This document shows positions 45,132 through 55,648 of a stretch of 64,000 nt of DNA, one piece after another; within the stretch, counting starts at the first letter, position 1; every line of letters begins with the position of its first letter. Location: the sequence record NC_054920.1; one strand, given 5' to 3'. This stretch comes from Escherichia phage vB_EcoM_G9062. The notes below the pieces were generated by a model, which searched no databases, was not told the origin of the DNA, and saw only the letters and a list, made by a program, of their open reading frames with translations. The position numbers were made by a program, and so were the translations under genes.

Positions 45132-45139
45132 TATAAATA
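45132..45139 (+). promoter_or_regulatory. Late promoter TATAAATA for gene 34
   Basis: Exact TATAAATA about 35 nt upstream of the gene 34 ATG. Confidence 0.6.
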
Positions 45140-45173: not shown

Positions 45174-48100
45174 ATGGCCGAGATTAAAAGAAAGTTCAGA
45201 GCAGAAGATGGTCTGGACGCAGGTGGCGATAAAATAATCAACGTAGCTTTAGCTGACCGTACCGTAGGAACTGACGGTGTTAACGTTGATTACTTAATTC
45301 AAGAAAACACAGTTCAGCAATATGATCCAACTCGTGGATATTTAAAAGATTTTGTAATCATTTATAATAATCGTTTTTGGGCAGCAACGGATAATATTCC
45401 AAAACCTGCTGGAAATTTTAATAGAATTCGTTGGAAAGCATTACGTACTGATGCCGTATATACAACCGTATCATCTGGACCATATCAATTAAAATCCGGA
45501 GAAGCAATTTCAGTAGATACATCAGTTGGCAATGACATTGAGTTTACTTTACCACCTTCTCCGCTTGATGGAGAAACCGTAATAATTCAAGATATCGGTG
45601 GAAAACCTGGCATAAATCAGGTTAAAATAAATTCTTCAAATCAGAGTATTGTCAATTTTAGAGGTGAACAGGTACGTTCAGTTTTAATGACTCATCCAAA
45701 GTCACAGATGATATTCATTTTTAATAATCGTTTGTGGCAAATGTATGTTGCTGATTATAGCAGAGAAGCTGCGATTGTTACTCCATCGACTGCGTATCAA
45801 GCACAATCTAATGATTTTATCGTACGTAGATTTACTTCTGCTGCACCAATTAATGTTAAACTTCCGAGATTTGCTAATCATGGCGATATTATTAATTTCG
45901 TTGATTTAGATAAACTGAATCCACTTTATCATACAATTGTTACTACATACGATGAAACGACTTCAGTACAAGAAGTTGGAACTCATTCCATTGAAGGCCG
46001 TACATCGATTGACGGTTTCTTGATGTTTGACGATAATGAGAAATTGTGGAGATTGTTTGACGGGGATAGTAAAGCACGTTTACGCATTATAACAACTAAT
46101 TCAAATATTCGTCCAAATGAAGAAGTCATGGTATTTGGCGCGAATAATGGAACAACCCAAACAATTGAACTTCAGCTTCCGACTGATATTTCTGTTGGTG
46201 ATACTGTTAAAATTTCCATGAATTACATGAGAAAAGGACAAACAGTTAAAATCAAAGCTGCTGGTGAAGATAAAATTGCTTCTTCAGTTCAATTGCTGCA
46301 ATTCCCAAAACGTTCAGAATATCCGCCTGAAGCTGAATGGGTAACAGTTCAAGAATTAGTTTTTAATGGTGAAACTAATTATGTACCAGTTTTGCAACTT
46401 GCTTATATAGAAGATTCTGATGGAAAATACTGGGTTGTACAGCAAAACGTTCCAACAGTTGAAAGAGTCGATTCTTTAAATAATTCTACTAGAGCAAGAT
46501 TAGGCGTAATTGCTTTAGCTACACAAGCTCAAGCAAATGCTGATTTAGAAAATTCTCCACAAAAAGAATTAGCAATTACTCCAGAAACGTTAGCTAATCG
46601 TACTGCTACTGAAACTCGCAGAGGTATTGCAAGAATAGCAACTACTGCTCAAGTAAATCAGAACACCACATTCTCTTTTGCAGATGACCTTATCATCACT
46701 CCTAAAAAGCTGAATGAAAGAACTGCTACAGAAACTCGTAGAGGTGTTGCTGAAATTGCTACGCAGCAAGAAACTAATACAGGTACTGATGATACTACAA
46801 TCATCACTCCTAAAAAGCTTCAAGCTCGTCAAGGTTCTGAATCATTATCTGGTATTGTAACTTTTGTATCTACCGCAGGAGCTACTCCAGCTTCTAGTCG
46901 TGAATTAAATGGTACGAATGTTTATAATAAAAACACTAATAATTTAGTTGTTTCACCTAAAGCTTTGGATCAGTATAAAGCTACTCCAACGCAACAAGGC
47001 GCAGTAATTTTAGCAGTTGAAAGTGAAGTAATTGCTGGACAAAGCCAAGAAGGATGGGCAAATGCGGTTGTAACGCCAGAAACGTTACATAAAAAGACAT
47101 CAACTGATGGAAGAATTGGTTTAATTGAAATTGCTACGCAAAGTGAAGTTAATACAGGAACTGACTATACTCGTGCAGTCACTCCTAAAACTTTAAATGA
47201 CCGTAGAGCAACTGAAAGTTTAAGTGGTATAGCTGAAATTGCTACGCAAGTTGAATTCGACGCAGGCGTCGACGATACTCGTATCTCTACACCATTAAAA
47301 ATTAAAACCAGATTTAATAGTACTGATCGTACTTCTGTTGTTGCTCTATCTGGATTAGTTGAATCAGGAACTCTCTGGGACCATTATACCCTTAATATTC
47401 TTGAAGCAAATGAGACACAGCGTGGTACACTTCGTGTAGCTACACAAGTTGAAGCTGCTGCAGGAACATTAGATAATGTTTTAATAACTCCTAAAAAGCT
47501 TTTAGGTACTAAATCTACCGAATCGCAAGAAGGTGTTATTAAAGTTGCAACTCAGTCTGAAACTGTGACTGGAACGTCAGCAAATACTGCTGTATCTCCA
47601 AAAAATTTAAAATGGATTGTGCAGAGTGAACCAACTTGGGCAGCAACTACTCTGATAAGAGGGTTTGTTAAAACTTCTTCTGGTTCATTAACGTTTGTTG
47701 GTAATGATACGGTAGGTTCAACACAGCCATTAGAATCATATGAGAAAAATGGTTATGCAGTATCACCATATGAATTAAATCGCGTATTAGCAAATTATTT
47801 GCCGTTAAAAGCAAAAGCTGCTGACGCAAATTTATTAGATGGTCTAGATTCATCTCAGTTCATTCGTAGGGATATTGCCCAGACAGTTAATGGTTCACTA
47901 ACCTTAACCAAACAAACGAACCTGAGTGCCCCTCTTGTATCATCTAGTACTGCTACGTTTGGTGGATCAGTTTCAGCAAATAGTACACTAACTATTTCTA
48001 ATACTGGAACGGCAACTCAATTAATTTTTGAGAAAGGACCTCAAACTGGAACAAACCCGACTCAAACAATGACTGTAAAAGTGTGGGGAAATCAATTTAG

Positions 48101-49043
48101 TGGGGAGTCAGACACAACACGTTCTACTGTATTTGAAGTTAGTGATGAAACTTCTAGTCATTTTTATTCTCAGCGTAATAAAGCTGGTAATATAACATTT
48201 AATATCAACGGTACAGTAACACCGATAAATGTGAATGCTTCAGGAACATTGAATGCGAATGGCGTTGCTACATTTGGTAATTCAGTCACTGCAACTGGTG
48301 AAATTATTTCTCGAAGCGCAAATGCTTTCCGTGCTATTAATGGAAATTATGGTTTCATTATTCGTAATGACGGGTCAGTAACGAATTTTATGCTTACTGC
48401 ATCAGGCAATCAAACTGGTGGATTTAATGGATTACGTCCATTGTCCATTAATAATCAATCTGGGCAGGTCACAATTGGTGAAAGCTTGATCATTGCTAAA
48501 GGTGCTACTATAAATTCAGGTGGTTTAACTGTTAACTCGAGAATTCGTTCTCAAGGTGTTAAAACATCTGATTTATATACCCGTGCGCCGACATCTGATA
48601 CTGTAGGATTCTGGTCAATCGATATTAATGATTCAGCCACTTATAACCAGTTCCCGGGTTATTTTAAAATGGTTGAAAAAACTAATGAAGTTACTGGACT
48701 TCCATACTTAGAACGTGGCGAAGAAGTTAAATCTCCTGGTACATTGACTCAGTTTGGTAACACACTTGATTCACTTTACCAAGATTGGATTACTTATCCA
48801 ACGACTCCAGAAGCACGTACCACTCGCTGGACACGTACATGGCAAAAAACTAAAAACTCTTGGTCAAGTTTTGTTCAGGTATTTGATGGAGGTAACCCTC
48901 CTCAACCTTCGGATATAGGAGCAATTCCATCTGATAATGGAATAATAGGTAATCTTACTATTCGTGATTTCTTACGAATTGGTAATGTTCGCATTATTCC
49001 TGACCCAGTGAATAAAACTGTTAAATTTGAATGGGTTGAATAA
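45174..49043 (+). CDS. 34: Long tail fibre proximal subunit gp34
   Basis: 1289 aa, same length as T4 gp34; internal repeats. Confidence 0.93.
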   Translation: MAEIKRKFRAEDGLDAGGDKIINVALADRTVGTDGVNVDYLIQENTVQQYDPTRGYLKDFVIIYNNRFWAATDNIPKPAGNFNRIRWKALRTDAVYTTVSSGPYQLKSGEAISVDTSVGNDIEFTLPPSPLDGETVIIQDIGGKPGINQVKINSSNQSIVNFRGEQVRSVLMTHPKSQMIFIFNNRLWQMYVADYSREAAIVTPSTAYQAQSNDFIVRRFTSAAPINVKLPRFANHGDIINFVDLDKLNPLYHTIVTTYDETTSVQEVGTHSIEGRTSIDGFLMFDDNEKLWRLFDGDSKARLRIITTNSNIRPNEEVMVFGANNGTTQTIELQLPTDISVGDTVKISMNYMRKGQTVKIKAAGEDKIASSVQLLQFPKRSEYPPEAEWVTVQELVFNGETNYVPVLQLAYIEDSDGKYWVVQQNVPTVERVDSLNNSTRARLGVIALATQAQANADLENSPQKELAITPETLANRTATETRRGIARIATTAQVNQNTTFSFADDLIITPKKLNERTATETRRGVAEIATQQETNTGTDDTTIITPKKLQARQGSESLSGIVTFVSTAGATPASSRELNGTNVYNKNTNNLVVSPKALDQYKATPTQQGAVILAVESEVIAGQSQEGWANAVVTPETLHKKTSTDGRIGLIEIATQSEVNTGTDYTRAVTPKTLNDRRATESLSGIAEIATQVEFDAGVDDTRISTPLKIKTRFNSTDRTSVVALSGLVESGTLWDHYTLNILEANETQRGTLRVATQVEAAAGTLDNVLITPKKLLGTKSTESQEGVIKVATQSETVTGTSANTAVSPKNLKWIVQSEPTWAATTLIRGFVKTSSGSLTFVGNDTVGSTQPLESYEKNGYAVSPYELNRVLANYLPLKAKAADANLLDGLDSSQFIRRDIAQTVNGSLTLTKQTNLSAPLVSSSTATFGGSVSANSTLTISNTGTATQLIFEKGPQTGTNPTQTMTVKVWGNQFSGESDTTRSTVFEVSDETSSHFYSQRNKAGNITFNINGTVTPINVNASGTLNANGVATFGNSVTATGEIISRSANAFRAINGNYGFIIRNDGSVTNFMLTASGNQTGGFNGLRPLSINNQSGQVTIGESLIIAKGATINSGGLTVNSRIRSQGVKTSDLYTRAPTSDTVGFWSIDINDSATYNQFPGYFKMVEKTNEVTGLPYLERGEEVKSPGTLTQFGNTLDSLYQDWITYPTTPEARTTRWTRTWQKTKNSWSSFVQVFDGGNPPQPSDIGAIPSDNGIIGNLTIRDFLRIGNVRIIPDPVNKTVKFEWVE
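46580..47620 (+). repeat. Degenerate tandem fibre repeats inside gene 34
   Basis: Recurring units such as ITPKKLxxRxATETRRGxAEIATQxE and AVTPKTLNDRRATESLSGIAEIATQ. Confidence 0.5.
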
Positions 49044-49051
49044 GAGGTATT

Positions 49052-50167
49052 ATGGAAAAATTTATGGCAGAGTTTGGACAAGGATATGTCCAAACGCCAT
49101 TTTTATCGGAAAGCAATTCAGTAAGATATAAAATAAGCATAGCGGGCTCTTGCCCGCTTTCTACTGCAGGGCCATATGTTAAATTTCAGGATAATCCCGT
49201 TGGAAATCAAACATTTAGTGCAGGTCTTCATTTAAGAGTTTTTGACCCTTCTACGGGAGCATTAGTTGATAGTAAGTCATATGCTTTTTCTGCTTCAAAC
49301 AATACAACATCTGCCGCTTTTGTCAGTTTCATGAATTCTTTGTCAAACAATAGACTTGTTGCTATATTAACTAGCGGAAAGGTTAATTTTCCTCCTGAAG
49401 TGGTATCTTGGTTAAGGGGAGCAGGAACTTCAGTTTTTCCATCAGATTCAGTATTGTCAAGATTTGACGTATCATATGCTGCTTTTTATACTTCTTCTAA
49501 AAGAGCTATTGCATTAGAGCATGTTAAACTAAGTAATAGAAAAAGCACAGATGATTATCAAACTATTTTAGATGTTGTATTTGATAGTTTAGAAGACGTC
49601 GGAGCGACAGGATTTCCAAAAAGAACTTATGAAAGTGTCGAGCAATTCATGTCAGCAGTTGGTGGAACTAATAACGAAATTGCGCGATTGCCAACTTCAG
49701 CTGCTATAAGTAAACTTTCTGACTATAATTTAATTCCTGGTGATGTTCTTTATCTTAAAGCACAGTTATATGCTGATGCTGATTTACTTGATCTTGGAAC
49801 TACAAACATATCCATTCGTTTTTATGATGCATCAAATGGATATATTTCCTCTACCCAAGCTGAGTTTACTGGGCAAGCTGGGTCATGGGAATTAAAGGAA
49901 GATTATGTAGTTGTTCCTGAAAATGCAGTCGGATTTACTATATATGCGCAGAGAACTGCTCAAGCTGGTCAAGGCGGAATGAGGAATTTAAGCTTTTCTG
50001 AAGTATCAAGAAATGGCGGCATTTCAAAACCTGCCGAATTTGGCGTCAACGGTATTCGCGTTAATTATGTCTGTGAATCGGCTTCACCTCCAGATATAAT
50101 GGTACTTCCTACACAAGCCTCTTCTAAAACTGGCAAAGTGTTTGGACAGGAATTTAGAGAAGTTTAA
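49052..50167 (+). CDS. 35: Long tail fibre hinge gp35
   Basis: 371 aa, synteny. Confidence 0.85.
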   Translation: MEKFMAEFGQGYVQTPFLSESNSVRYKISIAGSCPLSTAGPYVKFQDNPVGNQTFSAGLHLRVFDPSTGALVDSKSYAFSASNNTTSAAFVSFMNSLSNNRLVAILTSGKVNFPPEVVSWLRGAGTSVFPSDSVLSRFDVSYAAFYTSSKRAIALEHVKLSNRKSTDDYQTILDVVFDSLEDVGATGFPKRTYESVEQFMSAVGGTNNEIARLPTSAAISKLSDYNLIPGDVLYLKAQLYADADLLDLGTTNISIRFYDASNGYISSTQAEFTGQAGSWELKEDYVVVPENAVGFTIYAQRTAQAGQGGMRNLSFSEVSRNGGISKPAEFGVNGIRVNYVCESASPPDIMVLPTQASSKTGKVFGQEFREV

Positions 50168-50198: not shown

Positions 50199-50206
50199 TA
50201 TAAATA
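50199..50206 (+). promoter_or_regulatory. Late promoter TATAAATA for gene 36
   Basis: Exact TATAAATA about 25 nt upstream of the gene 36 ATG. Confidence 0.6.
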
Positions 50207-50229: not shown

Positions 50230-50880
50230 ATGGCTGATTTAAAAGTAGGTTCAACTGTAGGTGGATCTGTCATTTGGCATCAAGGAAATTTTCCATTGAA
50301 TTCAGCCGGTGACGATGTACTCTACAAATCATTTAAAATATATTCAGAATATAATAAACCACAGGCAGCTGATAACGATTTCGTTTCTAAAGCTAATGGT
50401 GGTACTTACACCGGTCCAATTACTATTAATTACGGGGTAAATAGTTATCTTCAATTAAGTAATAATGAAACCCCCATTCGAATTCGTTCTGGTGGCGGTA
50501 CCGGTAATACTCTTGTAGTTGGCGGCTCTTCCGGCGGTATTAGTTTTAGACCTGCAGGTAGTGAAATCACTACTGGACAAATTACTATTACACCAGAAGG
50601 TTTGACAACATTTACCAGGGCTGTAACGGCTCCATCGGTAACTGTTACATCTACTCCTTCCGCAGCATCTGATGTTACTCGCAAAGATTATGTTGATGGA
50701 GCAATAAATACTGTTACAGCAAATGCAAACTCTAGGGTATTACGCTCTGGAGACACTATGACAGGAAATTTAACTGCGCCAAACCTTTTTTCACAGAATC
50801 CTGCATCTCAACCTTCACACGTTCCACGATTTGACCAAATCGTAATTAAGGATTCTGTTCAAGATTTCGGCTATTATTAA
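50230..50880 (+). CDS. 36: Long tail fibre distal connector gp36
   Basis: 216 aa, synteny. Confidence 0.88.
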
Positions 50881-50888
50881 GAGGACTT

Positions 50889-53855
50889 ATGGCTACTTTA
50901 AAACAAATACAATTTAAAAGAAGCAAAACTGCAGGTCAACGTCCTGCAGCTTCAGTATTAGCCGAAGGTGAATTGGCTATAAACTTAAAAGATAAAACAA
51001 TTTTCACAAAAGATGACTCAGGTAGTGTTATAGAATTAGGTTTAAAATATGGAGGAACTATAAATGGATCTTTAGAGGTTACAGAAAATATAACTGGAAC
51101 TTTAATTGGAAATTCTAGTACAGCTACTAAATTGCAAACACCTAGGAAAATTAATGGTATATCTTTTGATGGATCAAAGGACATTACACTAACTCCATCT
51201 GATATAAATGTAAATAGTACAACGTTTATAAAAAATAACGGCGAATTACCTGTTGATGCTAATTTAGATGAGTATGGGCCTGTTGAAGAATATCTTGGAG
51301 TTTGGTCGAAAGCAACTTCAACCAACGCTCAACCAGCAAATAAATTTCCAGAAGAAAATGCTGTAGGTGTTCTAGAAGTATTTGTGGCCGGTCAATTTGC
51401 TGGTACTCAGAGATATACAACTAGATACGGAAATGTTTATATTCGTTCCTTGACTGCTACATGGAACGGAGTAAACGGTCCGTGGAGTGCGTGGCGAAAT
51501 ATTCAATCTGGTACTCGTCCACTGTCAACAACGATTGATCTTAATGATCTAGGAGGCGCTGAACACCTTGGTTTGTGGCGAAATAGTTCAAATTCCATTG
51601 CTACCTTTGACAGAAATTTCCCAGAAGAAGGATCGTCCGCTCAAGGACTTTTAGAAGTATATGAAGGTGGAAACTATTCTCGCACACAGAGATATACGAC
51701 CAGATTTGGTGTTGTTTATACTCGTTGTCTTGCTGCTGCGTGGGATGCTTCTGCGCCTAAATGGGGACCTTGGCAACAAGTCGGTAATGTCACACCGGCG
51801 ACTTTCTATGACGGAGATCTGAATGATTTTAAAACTCCTGGGTTATATAATATTTTAGGCACTGATGCCGTTATTAACTGTCCTACCGGTGAAGGTTTGC
51901 CGACTGTTATTGTTGGTTTGCTGGAAGTTAAACAGCGTGCTTCTGGCGGTGCTATTTTCCAAAAATTTACTACTGCCGGAACGGGTGCAACTACTCGCGA
52001 TCGTATTTTTGAGCGTGCATATACTGGTGGTGTGTGGGGTGCATGGAACGAAGTATATACATCTTATTCTCTGCCAATTACTTTGGGTATGGGTGGTATT
52101 AAAACTCAATTAGCGGAGCTAGACTGGCAAACCTTTGATTTTGTTCCTGGTAGTATGTTTAGTGTTCCTTTGAACAAAATAAAGAACATGCCAGCAAATA
52201 TGGATTGGGGTGCGATTGACGGAAACTTGGTTATGTTTTCTGTCGGTCCTAGCGAACACACTAGCACAGGGCGTACTGTTCAGGTTTGGCGTGGTACTGT
52301 ATCCCAGACAAACTACCGTTATTTTGTCGTTCGTGTGTTCGGTAATTCTGGAAATAGAACTTGCACAGTTCGCCGTGTTGTTCTTGAAGACGGATCACAT
52401 ACTTGGACTGCTAAACAAGATTTTAATGGCGCAGTTAATTTTAACTCTACTGTTAACCTTAATAACACTACCACATTTAAAACAGAAGTTAAATTTCGCG
52501 CATTGAATGCGTTCCGCCTGTATGGCGGAAAATTTGGTACATTTTTCCGTAATGATGGAGAGAGTCTTTATATTCTTTCCACCGACGAAGATGATCAAGA
52601 TGGAAACTTTAACACAAATAGACCTTTCCGTTATGAATTAAGAACTGGTGATGTTACTTTGGGTGGTACTAGTGGTGCTAACGTTTTAAAATTAAAACGT
52701 GATTCTCTCACCGCATTTTTTGGTGGTGATATTAACATGAAAGGCTTGATGACTTTTGACGCCGGACGTTTAGGATCACGAGATTATTTTAAATTTAACC
52801 ATTGGGGTGATAGCAATAACGCTCGTGATAACATTATTCAGTTAGAAGATAGCAAAGGCGTTCATTTTTCCACTGAACGTACTTTAGCGACTGGTGCAAT
52901 TAAGACTAAATTTTTTGGTGAAGTTGAATCCGAAGGTAGATTGATTATTAAACGTCCGGGTGATTCTATTGTATTATCAACAACTGCTAGTAATTCTTTG
53001 CATATTCGCGGTGATATAGACGGGACTGGTAACTGGTATATTGGTAAAGGTGGTGCTGATAATGGATTAGCGTTCTATAGTTATGCTACTAATGCTGGTG
53101 TATACATTACAAACGCAGGAGATATCTCGCTAAGTCCAAAGGGTGCCGAAATGGCTCAGGTCAATAACGTTCGATTATATGTTCATGGTGAACGTTGGAC
53201 TGCTAGTCAACCAGGTGATTGGGGTAGTCAGTGGCAAGTGGAAGCGCCAATATTCGTCGATCATGGTTATGTTGGACCAGATAGCTATTATCCAATTATT
53301 AAAGGAAGAAGTGTAATCACCAATCAAGGGTTTGTAACTGCCGTCGATCTTGGTATTCGTCGTGTCAATAACAATTGGGGACAAGCAATTATTCGTGTTG
53401 GATCTGCGGAGGCATCGCCAGCGGCTGGACACCCTAACGCGATATTTGAATTTCATTACGACGGTACTTTCTATTCTCCTGGTAATGGTAACTTTAACGA
53501 TGTGTATATTCGTTCCGATGGTCGACTTAAGATCAATAAAGAAGAGTTAGAAAACGGAGCACTTGAAAAAGTATGCCGACTGAAAGTTTATACATACGAT
53601 AAGGTTAAGTCTATTAAAGATCGTAGTGTTATTAAACGTGAAGTTGGTATTATTGCTCAGGATCTTGAAAAAGAATTATCAGAAGCTGTATCTAAAGTTG
53701 AAGTTGATGGATCTGATGTTCTGACAATTTCTAACTCCGCTGTAAATGCTCTTTTAATTAAGGCTATCCAAGAAATGAGCGAAGAAATTAAAGAATTAAA
53801 AACGCCTTTCTTCACTAAAATTGCTCGCAAAATTAGTAATTATTTTAAATTCTAA
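50889..53855 (+). CDS. 37: Long tail fibre distal subunit gp37 with C-terminal intramolecular-chaperone-like domain
   Basis: 988 aa; N-terminus as T4 gp37; C-terminal ~113 aa begins [14 protein letters not shown] (S74-peptidase-like motif). Confidence 0.9.
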
Positions 53856-53887
53856 CAACAAGGGGCTTTGCCCCTTTGGAGAAAATT

Positions 53888-54688
53888 ATGGCAGTAGTTG
53901 GTGTTCCCGGTTGGATTGGAAGTTCATCCGTAAATGAAACAGGACAACGATGGATGAGTCAAGCAGCTGGTCAATTAAGATTGGGTGTTCCTTGCTGGAT
54001 GAGCCAATTCGCCGGACGCTCAAGAGAGATTATTCATACTGTAAGTGCTAATCATAATTTTAATGGTCAGTGGTTCCGTGATAGATGCTTTGAAGCTGGC
54101 GGTGCACCCATTGTATTCAATATTGTTGGTGATATCGTTTCTTATTCTAAAGATGTGCCACTTTTCTTTATGTATGGGGATACGCCTAATGAATATGTTG
54201 TTCTTAATATTCATGGTGGTGTTCATATGTGGGGTCGTGGTGGTAATGGTGGATACACTCACTCAGGAGGCGACGGTAACGGTACACAAGGCGGTCATGT
54301 TATTCAAAATGATATCGGTGGACGGCTTCGTATTTGGAACTACGGTGTTATAGCTGCTGGTGGTGGCGGTGGTGGTGGTATTGCATATCGTCCACACTCA
54401 GGGGCAAACTGGCAAGATATCGGTGGCGGTGGTGGTCGACCTTTCGGTGGCGCTGGCGGCGGCGGTTATTCCGGTGGTGCTGCTTCGTATGAAGGTCCGG
54501 GTGGTGGTTATGACTATGGTAACGCACACTCCGGCGCTGGTGGTAATGCTGGTGCTTCTGGTCAGAATGCATGGTCTGACGGCGGTAAAGTTCTTAAAGT
54601 TGGTGTTGGTGGTGCGTCTGGTCATGCAGTGTTTGGATCTTCTCCAACTTGGGGTGCTGTTGGAACAATTTACGGACCAAGAGTATAA
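53888..54688 (+). CDS. 38: T2-type receptor-recognising adhesin gp38
   Basis: 266 aa from [13 protein letters not shown]...; conserved N-terminus and glycine-rich motifs; track ORF begins at TTG. Confidence 0.88.
54347..54560 (+). repeat. Glycine-rich motif region of gp38 (low-complexity GGT/GGC codon runs)
   Basis: Encodes [12 protein letters not shown]...[19 protein letters not shown]...GPGGGYDYG...[10 protein letters not shown]. Confidence 0.75.
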
Positions 54689-54718
54689 TTTGAATAAATA
54701 TCCTTAAAAGGAGGGTCT

Positions 54719-55375
54719 ATGGCAGCACCTAGAATATCATTTTCGCCCTCTGATATTCTGTTGGGTGTTCTAGATCGCTTGTTCAAAGATAATGCTACCG
54801 GGAAAGTTCTTGCTTCCCGGGTAGCTGTCGTAATTCTTTTGTTTATAATGGCGATTGTTTGGTATAGGGGAGATAGTTTCTTTGAGTACTATAAGCAATC
54901 AAAGTATGAAACATATAGTGAAATTATTGAAAAGGAAAGAAATGCACGCTTTGAATCTGTCGCCCTGGAACAACTCCAGATAGTTCACATATCATCTGAG
55001 GCAGACTTTAGTGCGGTGTATTCTTTCCGCCCTAAAAACTTAAACTATTTTGTTGATATTATAGCATATGAAGGAAAATTACCTTCAACAATAAGTGAAA
55101 AATCACTTGGAGGATATCCTGTTGATAAAACTATGGATGAATATACAGTTCATTTAAATGGACGTCATTATTATTCCAACTCAAAATTTGCTTTTTTACC
55201 AACTAAAAAGCCTACTCCCGAAATAAACTACATGTACAGTTGTCCATATTTTAATTTGGATAATATCTATGCTGGAACAATAACTATGTACTGGTATAGA
55301 AATGATCATATAAGTAATGACCGCCTTGAATCAATATGTGCTCAGGCGGCCAGAATATTAGGAAGGGCTAAATAA
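54719..55375 (+). CDS. t: Holin T
   Basis: 218 aa, same length as T4 holin; single N-proximal TM segment. Confidence 0.92.
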   Translation: MAAPRISFSPSDILLGVLDRLFKDNATGKVLASRVAVVILLFIMAIVWYRGDSFFEYYKQSKYETYSEIIEKERNARFESVALEQLQIVHISSEADFSAVYSFRPKNLNYFVDIIAYEGKLPSTISEKSLGGYPVDKTMDEYTVHLNGRHYYSNSKFAFLPTKKPTPEINYMYSCPYFNLDNIYAGTITMYWYRNDHISNDRLESICAQAARILGRAK

Positions 55376-55648
55376 TTATTTGTTCGTATACATCTCTAGA
55401 TATCGATATACACTCTCAAACCCCTCGTTGAATTCGTCGATGAGGGTTTTCTTATCTTCTTGGGTTAATTCAGAAACAATTTTACGGAATAAATTCTGAT
55501 TTAATTTTCTACCTTCATGCGTTACTCCAATCTCATTCAGAAATGCAATAAAATTAGCACGATTTTCAACAATATCTTCTCTGGAAAATTTAATCAAAAT
55601 AGATGCAACAGTAATAATTTCACGAACTGTATCAATGTTTTTATTCAT
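55376..55648 (-). CDS. asiA: Anti-sigma70 factor AsiA
   Basis: 90 aa, matches T4 AsiA. Confidence 0.92.
   Translation of the reverse strand: MNKNIDTVREIITVASILIKFSREDIVENRANFIAFLNEIGVTHEGRKLNQNLFRKIVSELTQEDKKTLIDEFNEGFESVYRYLEMYTNK

Follow-up and report, generated by a model that had tools for sequence, protein, structure and literature searches.

Evidence for a long-tail-fibre tip of the T2/T6/Ox2/S16 type in Escherichia phage vB_EcoM_G9062, with a putatively self-cleaving gp37 and a glycine-rich gp38 adhesin

We analysed a 64,000-nucleotide (nt) stretch of DNA, the window, from Escherichia phage vB_EcoM_G9062 (NC_054920.1; one strand read 5' to 3', with positions counted along the window) for the two genes that encode the distal end of the long tail fibre: gene 37, for the distal-subunit precursor gp37 (50889-53855, plus strand; an open reading frame (ORF) of 988 amino acids (aa)), and gene 38, for the receptor-recognising adhesin gp38 (ATG at 53888 to 54688, plus strand; 266 aa plus stop). 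We are highly confident that this locus is a Tequatrovirus tip module of the build known from T2, T6, Ox2 and S16, in which gp37 ends in a self-cleaving chaperone domain and gp38 serves as the adhesin, and nothing in our results contradicts an architecture of this type. We describe the domain identities of both proteins, the conservation of their catalytic and docking residues, their predicted folds, the distribution of variability in gp38, the apparently chimeric ancestry of the tip and its nearest characterised relatives, which point to OmpA as the probable receptor. A preliminary description, made from the sequence, had placed the module at 53514-54688, and these boundaries are apt: nt 53514-53516 are the TCC codon of gp37 Ser876, and 54688 is the last base of the gene 38 stop codon. 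The protein strings quoted there are present as well, the one from gp37 starting at Y873, three residues before position 53514.

The C-terminal domain of gp37

From Ser876 to Phe988, gp37 carries a 113-aa domain (53514-53852, plus strand) that had been likened to the Ser-Lys autoproteolytic intramolecular chaperone (IMC) of S74 peptidases, a likeness borne out by profile score, catalytic residues and predicted fold. Residues 876-934 match Pfam Peptidase_S74 (PF13884, 'chaperone of endosialidase') with an E-value of 1.2e-10 and 41.9 bits, the cut-off of this family being 22 bits, and position 1 of the profile aligns with Ser876. The catalytic dyad, Ser876 and Lys881, is contained in the motif SDGRLK (53514-53531, plus strand), with the lysine five residues downstream of the serine at the scissile bond. 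When the window protein was aligned with 11 reference T-even gp37 C-termini taken from GenBank records (Ox2, M1, T6, T2, PP01, AV119, LHE83, RB32, RB6, PYps5T and S16), which are 24-96% identical to it, the motif read S-D-x-R-[LIVC]-K throughout, with Ser and Lys invariant. Both residues are also invariant in the database homologues that cover the cleavage site (11/11). These homologues come from a word-indexed search with the 123-aa gp37 C-terminus, which returned 20 matches, mostly fragments, and yielded a small alignment only; the breadth of dyad conservation was judged by the 11 references and by matches to PHROG families, not by this set. In the PHROG comparison the 113-aa domain aligned, in every case, to the extreme C-terminus of fibre and tailspike families (at least 25 families).

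An AlphaFold2 (AF2) model of gp37 aa 866-988 reached a mean predicted local distance difference test score (pLDDT) of 82, and its top fold matches in the PDB are all S74-type domains: the MyRF ICA domain (7DC3; template modelling (TM) score 0.70, match probability 1.00), the IMC of the GA-1 neck appendage (3GUD; match probability 0.99), the IMC of the endosialidase endoNF (3GW6) and the L-shaped fibre pb1 of T5 with its chaperone (4UW8). By these matches, the modelled chain has the IMC fold, one of beta-hairpins followed by a long C-terminal helix. Fold comparison was the route to these classical IMC structures because a phmmer search of the domain against PDB sequences gave S16 gp37 (6F45_A, E 0.003) and one weak tail-fibre match.

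The C-terminal 113 residues of S16 gp37 form an IMC that cleaves itself off, with an experimentally determined site at DLNVS^SDRRIKK (PMC7917993), and this site aligns with DVYIR^SDGRLKI in the window protein. The window motif is identical to that of the Yersinia phages fPS-2 and fPS-65 as well as fPS-90, for which cleavage after the arginine has already been predicted (PMC7917993), and for T2 and T6, too, gp37 is described as undergoing cleavage before gp38 caps it (PMC3157838). By analogy with the experimental S16 site and the identical fPS motif, we predict that gp37 of vB_EcoM_G9062 is cleaved between Arg875 and Ser876, which would leave a mature protein of 875 aa (50889-53513, plus strand) ending in NFNDVYIR; with cleavage at this bond, the residues YIR would stay on the mature fibre protein.

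The gp38 adhesin and its variable segments

Sequence and fold comparisons alike place gp38 in the family of glycine-rich adhesins to which it had been provisionally assigned. Residues 1-42 match Pfam Gp38_N (PF21721, E 3.2e-19), residues 47-266 match Pfam GP38 (PF05268, E 5.2e-66) over profile positions 1-218 of 218, and the protein matches PHROG 2056 ('tail fiber protein; host specificity') from end to end (E 1e-107). Among solved structures, its sequence finds the receptor-binding domain of PP01 gp38 (9V85, E 1e-61), an entry that is the sfGFP-gp38(PP01) fusion (PMC12892980), and gp38 of S16 (6F45_D, E 2e-43). An AF2 model based on 86 homologues (pLDDT 86, predicted TM score (pTM) 0.79) retrieves the same two proteins by fold, 9V85_C (target-normalised TM score 0.88, E 1.5e-25) and 6F45_D (query-normalised TM score 0.76, E 3e-20), and no further PDB match with an E-value below 1, in agreement with the report that the polyglycine sandwich is a unique fold (PMC6851490). 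Judged by this whole-fold match, not by the geometry of the polyglycine-II (PGII) helices, the model has the three-domain fold with a PGII sandwich.

The attachment domain at the N-terminus (aa 1-42; 53888-54013, plus strand) contains W9, W22 and W37, which in an alignment with S16 gp38 coincide with the three tryptophans reported there to insert into pockets of the gp37 trimer (PMC6851490). Among the 86 homologues, W9 and W22 each show conservation of 90% or more, and W37 is present in 12/12 aligned sequences. A position at the virion fibre tip and a role in receptor binding are to be expected for gp38 by analogy with homologues, for which they are established by the S16 structure 6F45 and by genetic work on Ox2, T2 and T6 (cited in PMC3157838).

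Between aa 116 and 242, gp38 has eight glycine runs, and the claim that glycine motifs are separated by variable segments is reflected in a marked contrast of column entropies over the 86 homologues: the motifs at aa 116-122, 158-164 and 179-190 have 0.3-0.4 bits and the least conserved one, GRM4 at aa 216-225, has 0.98 bits, compared to 1.9-2.7 bits in four variable segments, all encoded on the plus strand. Segment 1 (aa 123-131, YTHSGGDGN; 54254-54280) has 1.9 bits against 0.4 in the flanking glycine motif. Segment 2 (aa 165-178; 54380-54421) shows the highest entropy in gp38, 2.7 bits, and includes the motif R-x-H-S-G-A, which belongs to the OmpA-binding adhesins of 'type 1'. Segment 3 (aa 191-215; 54458-54532; 1.9 bits) is the main indel site of the family, with an 8-column insertion after aa 192 in 77% of the homologues, and segment 4 (aa 226-241; 54563-54610; 2.3 bits) is nearly identical across the clade of Ox2, RB32 and AV119. 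That such segments determine host range, as the preliminary description proposed, is supported by their being the most variable columns of the protein and by published experiments (PMC3157838; bioRxiv 10.64898/2026.04.02.716166).

Database labels for this gene vary. In the record of phage vB_EcoM_G29, gp38 is already called 'putative tail fiber adhesin Gp38', next to a gp37 labelled 'hypothetical protein', and orthologous gp38 proteins appear in GenBank as 'tail protein and peptidase', 'distal long tail fiber assembly catalyst' and, in ZCEC14, 'DnaB-like helicase'. This coliphage-type locus is also found, at 96.5% identity, in a record named 'Pseudomonas phage PsgM02F', which puts the host label of that record in question. 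In an E. coli assembly, a 303-aa protein joins Peptidase_S74, Gp38_N and GP38 in one ORF; it is apparently either a read-through of the gp37 C-terminus into gp38 or an artefact of gene calling, the host assembly being free of prophages and contaminated with phage reads.

Chimeric ancestry of the fibre tip

Over its full length, gp38 is 48% identical to its counterparts in T2 and S16, 60% to PP01, 74% to T6, 86.5% to RB32, 96.2% to Ox2 (X05675.1, also 266 aa) and 98% to Yersinia phage PYps5T. In the alignment with the T2, T6 and Ox2 adhesins, Ox2 is thus the closest of the three, and the designation 'T2-type' that the adhesin had been given is right for the architecture but not for the sequence, which is of the Ox2 type (96% identity to Ox2 and 48% to T2).

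The similarity is unevenly distributed along the gene. Residues 1-121 are 100% identical to T6 gp38, whereas aa 118-266, the specificity region, share 97% of their residues with Ox2 but only 49%, with indels, with T6. Sliding DNA identity gives the same picture: positions 54000-54239 agree with T6 at 100%, Ox2 reaching 75-80% over 54000-54179, and from 54240 on the agreement is 95-100% with Ox2 and 43-65% with T6. The apparent recombination junction (54180-54253, plus strand) lies on glycine motif 1 (GRGGNGG, aa 116-122) and immediately ahead of it, where the T6-like sequence gives way to the Ox2-like one; the chimeric stretch as a whole, 53760-54300, takes in gene 38 up to aa 137 and the adjoining end of gene 37. 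Given a T6-identical N-terminal part and an Ox2-like specificity region, gene 38 looks like a natural chimera of T6 and Ox2, joined at the first glycine motif. Since the gp37 tip just before the IMC (53280-53580), upstream of the T6-like start of gene 38, is again Ox2-like and not T6-like, the whole tip region is a patchwork. In a published model, the variable segments are exchanged as a block by way of the conserved motifs (PMC3157838), and a switch at glycine motif 1 is the behaviour expected under this model, of which the junction in gene 38 would be a clean natural case: recombination swapping the specificity of an adhesin.

Receptor prediction

Ox2 gp38 is the 'receptor-recognizing protein' studied in the Henning laboratory, a classical OmpA-specific adhesin. 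It differs from gp38 of vB_EcoM_G9062 by ten substitutions, six of them in aa 52-83, where the window protein is T6-like, and four in the specificity region. The specificity region is also 83% identical to RB32, 83% to AV119 and 77% to LHE83, but only 42-52% to adhesins with other types of hypervariable segments (HVS), namely those of T6 (receptor Tsx), T2 (FadL/OmpF), PP01 and S16 (both OmpC) and M1. A loop of the form IAYR-x-HSGA-x-WQD, common to Ox2, RB32, AV119, FL08 and LHE83, is present in the window protein, which shares the other variable segments with these phages too, and at N174 and G193 it has the consensus of this OmpA clade, from which Ox2 deviates at both positions.

All of these relatives have been tied to OmpA. 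Ox2 binds it (PMC12032242), RB32 needs it and is sensitive to the composition of lipopolysaccharide (LPS; PMC3157838), AV119 and FL08 are 'type 1' OmpA phages, with the AV119 loop R165-A170 contacting OmpA (PMC12032242), and LHE83 reportedly uses it (PMC10987938). As the five phages have this receptor in common, we consider it quite probable that the vB_EcoM_G9062 adhesin recognises OmpA of E. coli, perhaps with a contribution of LPS as reported for RB32. The chimeric layout of the gene has an engineered parallel, in which a T6-like phage received no more than the distal half from a gp38 of OmpA type and thereupon changed its receptor entirely, from Tsx to OmpA (bioRxiv 10.64898/2026.04.02.716166); this construct mirrors the natural T6/Ox2 combination in the window.

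A 98%-identical gp38 is found in phage PYps5T (MT828552.1, 3201-4004), isolated on Yersinia pseudotuberculosis, from which the window protein is set apart by one extra Gly that PYps5T has in the long glycine run and by S53T, R46K, S224A, S230Y and T260A. Given this near-identical adhesin, the range of hosts or receptor variants may exceed the OmpA of E. coli K-12, and the finding suggests that this type of adhesin works across genera. Cross-genus recognition of OmpA has reportedly been discussed by Trojet et al., and PYps5T hints at something of the same kind.

Alternative readings

Several points limit the assignments made above and were considered together with the alternatives that they might favour. 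For vB_EcoM_G9062 itself, cleavage of gp37, a 3:1 stoichiometry of gp37 and gp38, the presence of gp38 in virions and the binding of OmpA are all carried over from homologues. The model of the IMC is that of a monomer, while the native domain is an intertwined trimer, and AF2 confidence is low for the N-terminal 17-40 residues of gp38, as would be expected of an attachment domain that folds against gp37. One may therefore ask whether the S74-like domain is a degenerate remnant that stays uncleaved on the mature fibre, the more so as its direct sequence match in the PDB, 6F45_A, is weak. We regard this as very improbable: the dyad is intact, and invariant in relatives down to 24% identity, the domain scores nearly twice the Pfam cut-off, its predicted fold matches solved IMC domains, and a retained domain would cover what serves as the docking surface for gp38 in the structure of S16 (PMC7917993). 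Even less probable, in our view, is that gp38 is an assembly chaperone in the manner of T4, absent from the virion, with the C-terminus of gp37 binding the receptor. The 'assembly catalyst' label of several GenBank orthologues would fit such a role, and a chaperone role before attachment is mentioned in PMC7917993, but these labels are a carry-over from T4 gene names. T4 gp38, encoded at the same position of the locus, is an unrelated chaperone of 183 aa: BLASTP of the window gp38 against it gave a best E-value of 3.5, with no detectable similarity, and a Pfam scan of the T4 protein returned neither a GP38 match nor any other. T4 gp37, although homologous at the N-terminus (75% identity over 64 aa) and weakly similar along the shaft, parts from the window protein at about aa 864 of the latter; it lacks the S74 domain and has a receptor-binding tip of its own, with Collar and Phage_fiber domains that the Pfam scan found in T4 gp37 and not in the window gp37. 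The window protein is thus devoid of the T4 collar, needle and head domains, a PDB search with it did not return the T4 gp37 tip structure, and the solved adhesins that gp38 resembles, by sequence as well as by fold, are those of S16 and PP01. With both gp38 and the gp37 tip of T4 being unrelated, the preliminary description was correct in calling the arrangement that of T2 and T6 and not that of T4.

The receptor assignment is the more exposed part of our interpretation. The architecture could be as described and the receptor still not be OmpA but Tsx, another porin, LPS or a Yersinia protein, which we consider unlikely, though not negligibly so. In its favour, aa 1-121 are those of T6, a Tsx phage; a single substitution in HVS3, Q206L, switches recognition from OmpF to OmpW (bioRxiv 10.64898/2026.04.02.716166), and four residues of the specificity region separate the window protein from Ox2 (N174K, G193R, S224A and A257V); phage PST gains OmpA recognition with few residue differences from T6 (PMC3157838); the adhesin of a Yersinia pseudotuberculosis phage is almost the same protein; and the needs of RB32 and Ox2 are reported to be 'more complex', including LPS (PMC3157838). 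It is because Q206L alone can change the receptor that we do not hold OmpA with greater confidence. However, the T6-identical part comprises the attachment domain and the beta-helix only, all four variable segments are Ox2-like, and chimera experiments place specificity in the segment of variable regions (PMC3157838; bioRxiv 10.64898/2026.04.02.716166), so that the low identity of the specificity region to T6, with its indels, leads us to expect a receptor other than that of T6. Ox2, RB32, AV119, FL08 and LHE83, all the characterised members of the clade, use OmpA, and at the two positions where Ox2 deviates from the clade consensus the window protein conforms to it. A narrower variant, that the chimeric adhesin recognises a set of receptors or receptor variants unlike that of classical Ox2, such as the OmpA of both E. 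coli and Yersinia or an extra porin or LPS, seems to us somewhat less likely still; if true, it would make this gp38 a natural allele of extended host range.

Comparison with characterised phages and proposed mechanism

Returning to the T2/T6/Ox2/S16-type module with OmpA as the probable receptor, its closest match among the characterised systems is Ox2: over the C-terminal 250 aa of gp37, including the cleavage motif SDGRLKINK, identity to the window protein is 95.6%, and genes 37, 38 and t follow in the same order. The same build is seen in S16 (PDB 6F45; Dunne et al. 2018), with a gp37 trimer, a 113-residue autocleaved IMC and a gp38 cap, the crystal structure showing one gp38 monomer per gp37 trimer. 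As in the window protein, S16 gp38 consists of an attachment domain, a beta-helix and a polyglycine sandwich (PMC7917993; PMC6851490), and the cleavage motif and the tryptophans of the two phages align. The two systems differ in that the identity amounts to 48% for gp38 and 24% for the gp37 C-terminus, that S16 gp37 has an extra distal domain of about 90 aa before the IMC, which the window gp37 lacks, and that S16 targets OmpC of Salmonella. T6 shares the same IMC and differs in the specificity region of gp38. For the fPS phages, the published reading is the same as ours, with release of the IMC and docking of gp38 on the DVYIR tip, but none of their gp38 proteins figures in the 60 closest to the window gp38, and the receptors reported for them are either OmpF together with LPS or only LPS.

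From these parallels, the following sequence of events can be proposed. The two proteins would be made late in infection, probably from one transcript that starts at a late promoter upstream of gene 36. Three gp37 chains would then fold into the beta-helical fibre, aided by their own C-terminal 113-aa IMC, and after folding of the trimer, Lys881 would activate Ser876 to cut the bond between Arg875 and Ser876, upon which the chaperone leaves. The exposed DVYIR tip of the trimer would be capped by gp38 through its N-terminal helical domain and W9, W22 and W37. The C-terminal half of gp38 would form the polyglycine-II sandwich from the conserved glycine motifs, presenting the variable segments as distal loops that touch the host receptor.

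The self-cleaving chaperone of gp37 with this exact motif, the gp38 adhesin family and the architecture as a whole are already known, and the locus holds nothing beyond the published Ox2, T2, T6, S16, PP01 and fPS systems. As a discovery it therefore carries little weight, with the sequence in GenBank and two crystal structures available for the gp38 family; its use lies in annotation and prediction. The gp37 of phage G29 can now be named and its cleavage site marked, and a confident prediction of OmpA is useful for the design of phage cocktails and for foreseeing resistance through ompA mutations.

Locus organisation and the gp37 shaft

Positions 53000-55400 of the window are 100% identical to Escherichia phages vB_EcoM_G29 (MK327940.1) and G4500 (Tequatrovirus gee9062). 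As judged from the ORF list and by direct reading, the tail-fibre genes lie on the plus strand in the order 34-35-36-37-38-t: gene 34 (45174-49043; 1289 aa), gene 35 (49052-50167), gene 36 (50230-50880), genes 37 and 38 and, as the downstream boundary of the tip module and itself outside it, the holin gene t (54719-55375; Pfam Phage_holin_T, E 9e-118). The succession of genes 37, 38 and t is also that of Ox2, T6, T2, PP01 and S16. The start of gene 38 was placed at ATG 53888, in preference to the TTG at 53876 given by the mechanical ORF list, because a GGAG (53878-53881) lies six nt upstream of this ATG, all homologues start with MAV or MAI, and the annotated Ox2 gp38 has 266 aa.

Exact matches to the T4-type late-promoter motif TATAAATA occur on the plus strand upstream of gene 34 (45132-45139) and upstream of gene 36 (50199-50206). 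The latter is the sole plus-strand match between gene 35 and gene t; none lies between genes 37 and 38 or directly upstream of either. Across the window the motif was found 12 times where 8.9 occurrences were expected, which is not above chance, and it is from knowledge of T4 late promoters that we take the match at 50199 to be a working promoter, the likely start of a late transcript of genes 36, 37 and 38. With no such motif between genes 37 and 38, these three genes are probably co-transcribed. A promoter of its own for gene 38 was considered and dropped, as the gap between genes 37 and 38 has no late-promoter motif and sigma-70-like matches stay below the number expected by chance.

The gap, 32 nt long, contains a GC-rich hairpin, AAGGGGC-TTT-GCCCCTT (53860-53876, plus strand; noted on reading the sequence and by RNA folding), located between the gp37 stop codon and the ribosome-binding site of gene 38 and directly adjoining the GGAG. 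Its folding energy of -13 kcal/mol (z = -1.3 relative to shuffled sequences) is not significant by itself. We considered it as a terminator or RNA-stabilising element; its energy is like that of the shuffles, and it has no U-tract, for which reason the terminator scan passed over it. It might serve to couple translation or to stabilise the mRNA.

The gp37 protein matches PHROG 1699 ('long tail fiber protein distal subunit', E 2.5e-221), and between aa 301 and 800 it is mostly 92-100% identical to T6 gp37 per 50-aa block. A scan of gp37 and gp38 against NCBIfam matched zero families, an uninformative result given that this library is made for bacterial and archaeal proteins. The distal shaft (52989-53588) is a mosaic: aa 701-800 are 92-98% identical to T6 and 56-76% to PYps5T, and aa 801-900 show the reverse pattern, with 74-84% to T6 and 96% to PYps5T. 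Residues 519-581 of gp37 (52443-52631) match Pfam 'Gp34_trimer' (E 4e-11) as well as C-terminal structures solved for T4 gp34 (4UXE, 5NXF, 5NXH and 9X3R), so that the proximal and distal half-fibres share a repeated module. In the neighbouring gp35, the hinge connector, aa 58-112 unexpectedly match a family with a eukaryotic name, Pfam ILEI (interleukin-like EMT inducer), above the cut-off (E 8e-8).

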